Of a stretch of 32,000 nucleotides of DNA, positions 29,176 through 29,628 are shown piece after piece. Each line of letters begins with the position of its first letter. Position 1 is the first letter of the stretch. The stretch is taken from positions 1-32,000 of the forward strand of contig JBMYVL010000010.1 of the NCBI GenBank assembly GCA_049606355.1. Reading direction: 5' to 3'. The notes beneath the pieces are model-generated. The model had not been told where the DNA came from. It made no database searches and saw only the letters and a program-made list of their open reading frames with translations. A program made the position numbers and the translations under genes. Source of the stretch: Opitutales bacterium (GTDB lineage Bacteria; Verrucomicrobiota; Verrucomicrobiia; Opitutales; Coraliomargaritaceae).

Positions 29176-29190
29176 GTTTCACACTGAAAC
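29176..29190. promoter_or_regulatory. Palindrome GTTTCA-cac-TGAAAC, a candidate activator (enhancer-binding protein) site
   Basis: Perfect 6-bp arms, centred about 80 bp upstream of the predicted start of the RNA locus. An A8 tract at 29213-29220 lies in between. The function is inferred only. Confidence 0.3.
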
Positions 29191-29237
29191 ACGCTTCAAC
29201 TGGATTAAATATAAAAAAAATCTGCGTCTGTGGAAGT

Positions 29238-29252
29238 TGGCACGCTACTTGT
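29238..29252 (+). promoter_or_regulatory. Candidate sigma-54 (-24/-12) promoter
   Basis: TGGCACGctacTTGT compared with the consensus TGGCACG-N4-TTGCW. Spacing is correct and all conserved positions match except the C of the -12 GC. The predicted TSS at ~29263-29266 coincides with the start of RNA module 1. Confidence 0.45.
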
Positions 29253-29263
29253 TTATGTATACC

Positions 29264-29557
29264 TAAACTTTCTCCCGTAGGGAGTTGGGGTAATAAGACA
29301 AAGCAGAAAACAGAGTGGTGCGGGGTTTAGGGGTAGGCCCCGCATCACCAACTGCAGGTCTGAGATAAGTTCACCTAATTCTAGATATTAGTGAAATAAG
29401 TACATTCAGTTGGGGCGCTTTTCTGCCTTGTGCGCCCGAGAGGATCAGCTACTTTCATGAGCATAACTTATTTCTCCCGCAAGGGAGTTTGGGGTAACAG
29501 AATAAAGTAGACAATGGTTGGCGCACTCCTTAGGGGTAGGGAGTGCGCCTTTTATTT
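29264..29557 (+). ncRNA. Candidate structured small RNA locus with two tandem homologous modules (M1 ~29264-29349, M2 ~29462-29557)
   Basis: Each module carries a CTCCC-loop-GGGAG hairpin, a conserved TTGGGGTAA, an A-rich linker, and a second hairpin whose stem sequences differ while the loop core TTAGGGGTAG is conserved. The terminator and a G:U pair support the plus strand. See findings. I did not recognise it as a known RNA family. Confidence 0.55.
29520..29557 (+). terminator. Rho-independent terminator ending the RNA locus (module 2, hairpin 2)
   Basis: GGCGCACTCC-ttaggggtag-GGAGTGCGCC forms a 10-bp perfect GC-rich stem followed by TTTTATTT. Confidence 0.75.
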
Positions 29558-29599
29558 GCCTGATTCACAAGGACTTAGCTGATTTAAAGCGTCGCGTGC

Positions 29600-29628
29600 G
29601 GCAACTCTCAGTTGCCTCTTTGGGTTTT
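29600..29628 (+). terminator. Second hairpin with a T-rich tail, a possible back-up terminator
   Basis: GGCAACT-ctc-AGTTGCC is followed by TCTTTGGGTTTT. On the minus strand, downstream of the DUF2288 gene, no U-tract follows it. Confidence 0.3.

Follow-up and report, generated by a model that had tools for sequence, protein, structure and literature searches.

What does the gap at positions 29121-29667 encode in the 32,000-nucleotide stretch of Opitutales DNA analysed here (contig JBMYVL010000010.1, positions 1 to 32,000; "the window" means this whole stretch)? A first-pass annotation, made from the letters alone, had proposed that this gap, the window's largest non-coding stretch between open reading frames (ORFs), holds two homologous modules of a structured plus-strand RNA behind a sigma-54-type promoter. 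We consider it highly probable that the gap contains two independent, paralogous plus-strand small RNA (sRNA) genes, here named B and A, that belong to a previously undescribed RNA family conserved across the order Opitutales. This judgement covers our best explanation of the gap as a whole, namely the two sRNA genes, the order-wide family, the promoters of B and A, and action in trans. B denotes the upstream type, with the linker AAGACAAAGCAGAAAACAG (module 1 of the window), and A the downstream type, with the linker AAUAAAGUAGACAAUGG (module 2). Together they occupy positions 29264-29557 of the plus strand, with the parts listed below. The earlier coordinates of the modules, the hairpins, TGGCACGctacTTGT, a palindrome and a G:T wobble were all verified in the window sequence, and the claim that the gap is the largest intergenic one holds among the ORF-to-ORF stretches of the window.

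29264-29348 (+), sRNA B (module 1), from its predicted 5′ end; cmsearch score 69.4 bits, E = 1e-14; minimum free energy -35.1 kcal/mol, z = -4.7
29272-29284 (+), hairpin 1 (H1) of B, CTCCC-GTA-GGGAG
29285-29293 (+), single-stranded TTGGGGTAA of B (UUGGGGUAA as RNA)
29294-29314 (+), A-rich linker of B
29315-29348 (+), hairpin 2 (H2) of B, GTGGTGCGGGG/CCCCGCATCAC, arms 29315-25 and 29338-48, tip UUUAGGGGUAGG
29463-29557 (+), sRNA A (module 2), from its predicted start; cmsearch score 112.9 bits, E = 8e-26; minimum free energy -37.7 kcal/mol, z = -4.8
29474-29487 (+), H1 of A, CTCCC-GCAA-GGGAG
29488-29497 (+), single-stranded UUUGGGGUAA of A, which contains TTGGGGTAA at 29489-29497
29498-29519 (+), linker of A, with AAAGUAGACAAUGG
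29520-29549 (+), H2 and terminator hairpin of A, GGCGCACTCC/GGAGTGCGCC, tip UUAGGGGUAG
29550-29557 (+), T-run of A, TTTTATTT

RNA structure and covariation of B and A

The two RNAs share one anatomy: H1 (CUCCC, a GNRA or long loop, GGGAG), a single-stranded UU(U)GGGGUAA, an A-rich linker, and a G+C-rich H2 with the invariant tip UUAGGGGUAG. Within the window, TTNGGGGTAR occurs three times in 32 kb, always inside the gap, against an expectation of 0.3, and the 11-mer TTAGGGGTAGG is repeated exactly at a spacing of 203 nucleotides (nt). Both modules fold below shuffled sequences, with 0 of 200 shuffles matching either, and the wobble pair G29318:T29345 in H2 of B was confirmed.

Comparison across related loci carries the structural argument. 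When 73 copies were aligned with MAFFT, every cell of H2 (100%) was paired and 7 of the 10 pairs had changed on both sides; one pair alone appears as UA (33), CG (30), GC (6), AU (2) and GU (2). A covariance model derived from this alignment found 126 copies in genome loci and 135 in metagenome loci, and in the resulting alignments 98.8% of pair cells are paired in both sets, with double-sided changes at 13 of 15 and 11 of 15 pairs. None of 500 shuffles reached the observed pairing or change values, and pairing fell to 38-68% in a control that shifted the partners one to three columns. In the A type, H1 hardly varies and reads CUCCC-GCAA-GGGAG in about 70 of the 78 copies anchored on the linker. 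The few variants compensate between the two arms: UUCCC/GGGAA, CUUCC/GGAAG and, among the closest relatives of the window, CUUCU/AGAAG. Taken as sequence evidence, these patterns argue that the RNA structure is under purifying selection, with helices kept by compensatory base changes. The first-pass annotation had read two homologous modules as a structured plus-strand RNA from stem replacement around a conserved loop in two copies; compensatory stems around conserved G-rich motifs bear this out, the replacement holds on more than 250 copies, and the covariance-model search of relatives that it had suggested as a check found the helices kept. H2 contains many G-U pairs (counts at single pairs include UG:21 and GU:16), and T-runs follow it on the plus strand only, so the RNA is assigned to the plus strand.

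The single-stranded UU(U)GGGGUAA and the H2 tip UUAGGGGUAG are both invariant, and the tip could add three more pairs around a GGGG tetraloop. That these parts stay the same and do not covary speaks for sequence-specific recognition. In many A copies an extra hairpin of variable length and sequence, a clade-specific expansion segment, sits between GGGGUAAYA and AUAAAGUAGACAAUGG, so that the 5′ and 3′ halves of the RNA appear to tolerate separation. At least four unrelated stem sequences, with loops of 4 to about 13 nt, occur in this hairpin before AUAAAGUAGAC; its carriers include the A copies of loci L009, L010, L022, L024, L025, L028, L036, L051 and L063, among others (alignment A2, columns 32-64).

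Two other readings of the conserved bases were tried and rejected. RNAalifold on the MAFFT alignment preferred pairing of CCC with the downstream GGGG over H1, and we set this aside because the rare H1 variants compensate within H1. As for a small ORF, the ATG of the A linker precedes stem positions that change non-synonymously and a 1-nt indel (GGTGGCGC vs GGTTGGCGC), and the ATG of the B loop is missing from the window's B.

Distribution and genomic address of the family

We scanned one genome per species (185,579 species) with the query CTCCC-N3-4-GGGAGTT-N0-1-GGGGTAA, which covers H1 and the single-stranded motif only. Sixty-nine contigs matched, 63 of them from Opitutales, Puniceicoccaceae, Coraliomargarita, Lentimonas or Thalassobacterium. 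The H2 loop TTAGGGGTA[AG], a motif absent from the query, lies 52-88 nt downstream in 75/75 matches on those 63 contigs, and all six matches in other phyla are without it; the two-hairpin unit and its restriction to one order are thus independently confirmed. A metagenome scan anchored on the linker pattern AAGTAGACAATGGT-N0-1-GGCGC, and hence blind to H1, gave 80 loci, of which 69 were true and 11 were chance matches. The viral contigs searched gave 0 matches. There is one syntenic locus per genome, except for two metagenome-assembled genomes (MAGs) with two loci each. Judged by these matches, the family spans the order Opitutales, including Puniceicoccaceae, Coraliomargaritaceae and the marine 'Opitutaceae'. 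The near-identical strains L003-L006 differ by few single-nucleotide polymorphisms, only in linkers, and give no covariation information.

The covariance model exposed a second, more divergent copy about 200 nt upstream and on the same strand in almost every locus. This is the B type, and the layout across the order has dciA in divergent orientation, next B, and after it A in one to three copies. The genome loci (n=64) comprise BA in 21, B plus A overlooked by the regular expression in 9, and BAA or BAAA in 6; the metagenome loci (n=69) comprise BA in 41 and BAA in 9, the remainder being A-only fragments, often at contig ends. Orthologous B copies number about 45 in genome loci and 50 in metagenome loci. 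Because the B and A pair is present in almost every locus, the duplication is older than the radiation of the order. Many metagenome contigs start or stop within an sRNA copy (L079, L095, L101, L108, L120, L129, L134, L146 and L150); near-identical tandem copies are expected to break assemblies, and MAG copy numbers are therefore lower bounds.

In the window the gap is flanked by two minus-strand genes:

28761-29120 (-), dciA, the DnaC/DnaI-antecedent helicase loader (Pfam PF05258, E = 1.6e-11), divergent from the sRNA locus
29668-30090 (-), DUF2288 gene, on the other flank of the gap

A dciA homologue, 58-76% identical to the window's, lies divergently upstream in 42/63 loci. In L035, L041 and L048 A is found on the far side of dciA, convergent with it, and B stays divergent; the link between B and dciA appears more strongly retained than that between A and dciA. 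Downstream neighbours vary. In 26 loci the convergent neighbour is a protein of about 349 amino acids, which probably corresponds to one of this size annotated as IMS/DinB-family in L007; in 9 loci rpsA lies 118-192 nt further on in the orientation of the sRNAs, and other genes occur elsewhere. Homologues of the DUF2288 protein group the organism with marine Opitutales, close to Puniceicoccaceae and Coraliomargarita. Synteny through DUF2288 was considered and dropped, since in C. akajimensis and in a Puniceicoccaceae MAG this gene sits in another context without the RNA. One of the 63 contigs, labelled as a Yoonia sp. MAG, an alphaproteobacterial bin (L072, JBLHPJ010000009.1), has the full arrangement of a dciA homologue, B and two A copies, and this contig is probably mis-binned.

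The remaining window genes are of housekeeping content, assigned by Pfam as S-adenosylmethionine synthetase, S-adenosylhomocysteine hydrolase, topoisomerase IV-type subunits, phosphoenolpyruvate carboxykinase and carboxylase, chorismate synthase, QueG, dihydrofolate reductase and thymidylate synthase, together with ribosomal protein S1 (rpsA), identified by Pfam S1 domains on homologues. The rpsA ORF at 30176-31939 (+) encodes 587 amino acids as listed vs 548-552 in homologues, and the DUF2288 ORF encodes 140 as listed vs about 106 in homologues. The real starts of both genes probably lie further inside the listed ORFs; the promoter of rpsA may itself fall within the beginning of its ORF as listed.

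No known RNA family accounts for the locus. At the gathering threshold, Rfam 15 found only a tRNA in the window; at E <= 10, the best sub-threshold matches in the gap reached 17 bits or less vs thresholds of 80-105, and these weak matches (BTnc201, TarB, a microRNA and long noncoding RNAs) were judged spurious. Rfam gave no match on the sRNAs in 24 related loci either, which upholds the earlier impression that they fall in no Rfam family, and no description of such an RNA was found in the literature searched. Readings as 6S RNA, signal recognition particle RNA or a riboswitch were dropped for misfit of architecture and for want of an Rfam match. A genuine 6S RNA gene (Rfam RF00013, 72.9 bits) stands separately in a Coraliomargarita MAG, at L017 760-938 (-), about 80 nt past A on the same strand, so B and A are not 6S RNA. 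None was found beside the locus in the 23 other loci scanned with Rfam, nor in the window.

Promoters, terminators and read-through

The predicted control elements of the two genes in the window are as follows.

29175-29189 (no strand), palindrome GTTTCAcacTGAAAC, absent in L044, L060 and L062
29238-29252 (+), sigma-54-type -24/-12 element of B, TGGCACGctacTTGT, TGGCACG-N4-TTGT, with GT, not GC, at -12
29361-29404 (+), two direct ATAAGT-containing repeats between B and A, TGAGATAAGTTCA / TGAAATAAGTACA (D6 repeat)
29408-29437 (+), third-motif hairpin, AGTTGGGG with GGGCGC-N-GCGCCC, overlapping the A -35; lineage-specific, absent in L044, L060 and L062
29427-29455 (+), housekeeping-type promoter of A, -35 CTTGTG (29427-32) and -10-like TACTTT (29450-55), predicted start near A29463

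Upstream of B, TTGGCAYR-N5-TGTT is found at fixed spacing in 41/45 genome and 45/48 metagenome copies; upstream of A it is found in only 3/66 and 1/80. Of 49 such sites in 510 kb, 37 lie at most 80 nt upstream of a copy. No position of the -24 half departs from the sigma-54 consensus, and the GG-N10-G spacing is kept exactly. In the window, the -24 element gTTGGCACG at 29237-29244 agrees with YTGGCACGR and its invariant GG; across the family the -24 element has T at -1 in 41/42 and, at position 6, either G (25) or A (16). From this pattern, the B promoter is probably of sigma-54 type with a non-canonical -12. What had been claimed for module 1 thus stands as to position and spacing, kept in about 90% of orthologous copies, and fails as to a canonical -12, since GT is found family-wide.

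Several observations count against sigma-54 control of B. The -12 doublet is GT instead of the consensus GC in 34/42 and 34/45 copies (triplets across B copies: TGT 34, TGG 6, TGA 4, TGC 1). Across the 130 nt upstream of B we found no conserved activator site in the form of a k-mer or palindrome, only dciA coding k-mers, and the distance of only 43-121 nt between the B -24 element and the start codon of dciA leaves little room for one. Sigma-54 activators without a DNA-binding domain do exist. The palindrome GTTTCAcacTGAAAC and an A-tract, put forward earlier as an activator site and DNA bend, lack conservation already among the closest relatives (L044, L060 and L062); the palindrome is more plausibly part of the dciA promoter region. 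Profile scans found no rpoN or activator gene among the window genes, and RpoN is usual in Verrucomicrobia (PMC3372290). The missing -12 C and the lack of an upstream activator site would also suit a housekeeping promoter for B, with TGTTATA as an extended -10 (TGnTATAAT-like) and TTGGCA as a regulator site. TG-T-TATA is indeed present in most copies (position 15 T in 42/42, 16 A in 29/42, 17 T in 32/42). However, TTGGCAYR fits the -24 consensus throughout with fixed GG-N10-G spacing, the last T of the -10 is conserved in only 13/42 and the -11 A is missing in 13/42, the 10-nt gap from TTGGCA to TATA misfits -35/-10 geometry, and the housekeeping promoters of this lineage look different (CTTGCA...TATCTT). 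We regard an extended -10 promoter for B as unlikely.

Near the predicted B start, a conserved (A)GTTCTTTC follows the sigma-54-type element in L018, L022, L042, L047, L051, L053 and L063. At L068 6306 and L075 5903 the promoter element and the (A)GTTCTTTC leader occur without a recognisable B copy, and may represent a decayed B gene. A canonical sigma-54-like sequence elsewhere in the window, TGGCACacaggTTGC (TGGCAC-N5-TTGC) at 20840-20854 (-), lies inside a GyrB/ParE-family gene of the topoisomerase IV B-subunit type and, being intragenic, was taken as chance.

The A promoter has a different consensus, aATAatgCTTGCAgg-N~15-TATCTT, 44-52 nt before CTCCC in 99 distinct A upstream regions, with the predicted start at a conserved CATCAAC. 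B and A are thus predicted to have different, type-specific promoters. The first-pass annotation had supposed that one promoter was duplicated with the module and decayed in module 2, and this is overturned by the family-wide CTTGCA/TATCTT promoter of A. In the window the -35 of A is degenerate (CTTGTG vs the family's CTTGCA). CTTGCA boxes were also seen at the -35 position upstream of the window's tRNA gene (245-326, -), at 369-374 (-), and just upstream of rpsA, at 30149-30154 (+), which suggests CTTGCA, in place of TTGACA, as the housekeeping -35 consensus of this lineage. In many loci (L017, L042, L013, L070, L024, L050, L061 and others), arrays of the form ATAAGY..CTAAT/CTTAT..ATAAGT..TAAGTA recur about 55-95 nt before the A -35, and the ATAAGT repeats are probable transcription-factor sites for the A promoter. 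In a sub-clade (L009, L010, L020, L030, L064, L067 and L069), gagtgtGTTCTTTaaaa stands in place of these arrays. The third AGTTGGGG/GGGCGC hairpin, earlier counted as part of the structured RNA, did not hold up: besides its absence from the closest relatives, its fold is not significant (z = -1.2; 27 of 200 shuffles equally good).

A ends in an intrinsic terminator, as had been proposed for module 2. Its G+C-rich hairpin and TTTTATTT form the sole strong terminator-like site of the region, and all A copies end likewise. Another terminator-like hairpin, GGCAACTCTCAGTTGCC then TCTTTGGGTT, lies at 29600-29616 (+), 50 nt past the A terminator, and a T-to-C change in sister strains breaks one of its pairs. 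The hairpin of B in the window is followed by CAACTGCAGG and has no T-run; most B orthologues end in T-rich tails of their own, of the TTTGTTTT or CACTTTGTTTT type, and the closest relatives of the window have CAATTTTT. The lost T-run of B and the degenerate A -35 within a lineage-specific hairpin make read-through from B to A plausible in this window, in which case part of B transcription would continue to the A terminator and yield an RNA of about 290 nt beside the roughly 95-nt A. An exclusive 290-nt RNA, running here from the B promoter to the A terminator in place of two sRNAs, is a step further. It would agree with the same two features and with the complementarity of GAAATAAGT (29393-401) to ACTTATTTC (29466-74), yet nearly all other species have both a T-rich B tail and an A promoter, the segment between the copies is poorly conserved apart from the ATAAGT repeats, and the A promoter keeps its -10-like box and CATAAC start region. 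We judge it distinctly unlikely. Of the two options first offered, one RNA of about 290 nt or two sRNAs, the single RNA is not the rule in a family whose B copies elsewhere have a terminator; what stands is its plausibility here as a read-through product.

Function, rival explanations and known systems

In the proposed mechanism, B would be under the sigma-54-type -24/-12 promoter and A under the housekeeping CTTGCA/TATCTT promoter with upstream ATAAGT repeats, so the two would respond to different signals because their promoter types differ. Both would act in trans and post-transcriptionally, with the two invariant G-rich motifs (in the single strand and at the terminator tip) and the conserved linker as the contact surface. 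How this surface might work is held more tentatively. By analogy with LhrC and RsaE, B and A could be multi-seed sRNAs that base-pair with pyrimidine-rich sites on other RNAs, with the motif polarity inverted, a proposal to which we give a little less than even credence. Shine-Dalgarno (SD)-like tetramers (GGAG, GAGG, AGGA, GGGG) occur at -20 to -4 of 32/327 starts (crude start calls in Opitutales loci L009-L077 and the window), as the first-pass annotation had suspected for this lineage, and are depleted around starts compared with coding sequence (6.8 vs 11.3 per kb). Since they are rare at starts, the targets would be pyrimidine-rich sites other than SD sequences. TACCCC is 4-fold enriched near starts, on only 7 counts.

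The overall explanation has evidence to set against it. The 5′ ends of B and A are predicted, from promoter geometry alone. The covariance-model alignments were fitted to the model and lean towards its structure (the MAFFT result for H2 is independent of it), and support for H1 of A is from a handful of variants plus the B copies. When about 0.5 Mb of related sequence was searched for target sites complementary to the RNAs, the yield was essentially their own antisense, with scattered matches at two mismatches. Finally, conservation covers almost all of the single-stranded positions; a fixed macromolecular partner would explain this no less well than mRNA seeds would, and sponge and decoy models stay alive.

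The main alternative, a protein sponge like CsrB/RsmZ or CrcZ in which the invariant G-rich motifs titrate an RNA-binding protein, is possible, if somewhat unlikely. Two motifs per RNA in up to four tandem genes (amplification reaches BAAA), placement of the motif in a hairpin tip and a flanking single strand, its invariance where DciA is only 58-76% identical, and conservation that extends beyond a short seed to nearly all single-stranded positions would all suit a sponge. The motif is GGGG, however, not the GGA of CsrA sites, and GGA itself is confined to stems, namely the paired 3′ arm of H1 and, variably, H2; the linker is fixed in length and sequence, unlike those of sponge RNAs, and no candidate protein is encoded nearby. 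A bolder idea, which we consider a long shot, is that the SD-like motifs GGGAG, UGGGGU and AGGGGU mimic a ribosome-binding site or other pyrimidine-binding surface, B and A competing for one conserved partner as a GlmY/GlmZ-like decoy and a hitherto unknown global regulator of the Opitutales. The candidate shared partners would be the 16S 3′ end or 30S subunit, an RNA chaperone or an RNase adaptor, and, speculatively, such a circuit might be coupled to replication through the back-to-back promoters of B and dciA. A cis-acting role, whether as leader or attenuator for the gene that follows or through antisense regulation of the dciA or DUF2288 transcript, is very improbable. The conserved adjacency to dciA and the nine loci with rpsA on the same strand would favour it, whereas every copy is terminator-ended, none overlaps dciA, most loci have a convergent gene downstream (DinB-like in 26, various in the rest), and A lies on the other side of dciA in L035, L041 and L048. 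With their terminators, a downstream gene that is usually convergent, and a form that stays the same at every location, the copies do not appear to be cis-regulatory. Two similar modules side by side could also suggest a miniature inverted-repeat transposable element or a recent local duplication without function, an explanation we have practically dismissed given the syntenic, order-wide locus, the compensatory stem changes, the type-specific promoters, the lack of terminal inverted repeats and the 0 matches in viral contigs. We therefore keep two trans-acting sRNA genes as the preferred explanation of the gap.

To our knowledge, essentially no regulatory RNAs have been characterised in Verrucomicrobia. 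The family described here is a new sRNA family of a familiar kind, ready for Rfam submission: it is well delimited, with more than 250 sequences with compensatory changes, predicted promoters and a fixed genomic address, and its cultured carriers (Thalassobacterium spp., for example T. sedimentorum SDUM461004 and T. maritimum SDUM461003, loci L051 and L063) make direct deletion and probing possible. With one paralogue of sigma-54 type and the other of housekeeping type, the pair could help to reveal the scope of sigma-54 control in the phylum, and the GT found almost universally at -12 provides natural material for studying how a PVC-group sigma-54 recognises promoters. The invariant G-rich, SD-like motifs are the inverse of the usual C/U-rich sRNA seeds and suggest targets of a class that has yet to be described for sRNAs in bacteria.

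Among known systems, GlmY/GlmZ of Enterobacteria are likewise two homologous sRNAs of similar fold with sigma-54-type promoters involved, and by analogy one of the differentially controlled paralogues could modulate the other through a shared binding partner. They differ in that Rfam finds no sequence or structure match between them and B/A, their genes are unlinked whereas B and A are in tandem with a sigma-54-type element on B only, and we know of no RapZ-like partner or glmS link for B and A. Qrr of Vibrio and Pxr of Myxococcus are also small terminator-ended sRNAs with TTGGCA-type -24/-12 promoters and multiple paralogous copies; their sequences are unrelated, and the present family has GT at -12, no identifiable activator site and a second paralogue class with a housekeeping promoter. 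CsrB and RsmX/Y/Z sponges resemble B and A in repeated purine-rich motifs in loops and single strands, terminator ends and sometimes tandem genes, but B and A have no GGA-in-loop repeats, only two motifs per RNA, and fixed linkers. The tandem PrrF1/PrrF2 paralogues of Pseudomonas each have their own promoter and terminator, with possible read-through to a longer RNA (PrrH); they share one regulator (Fur), whereas the B and A classes have different promoter types. LhrC1-5 of Listeria and RsaE/RoxS of Firmicutes likewise repeat a short motif in a single strand and the terminator loop, with the motif invariant and the stems variable, and the LhrC genes also form tandem arrays. Their motif is C-rich (UCCC) and pairs with Shine-Dalgarno sequences, whereas that of B and A is of the complementary type (GGGG, SD-like), in a lineage poor in SD sequences.

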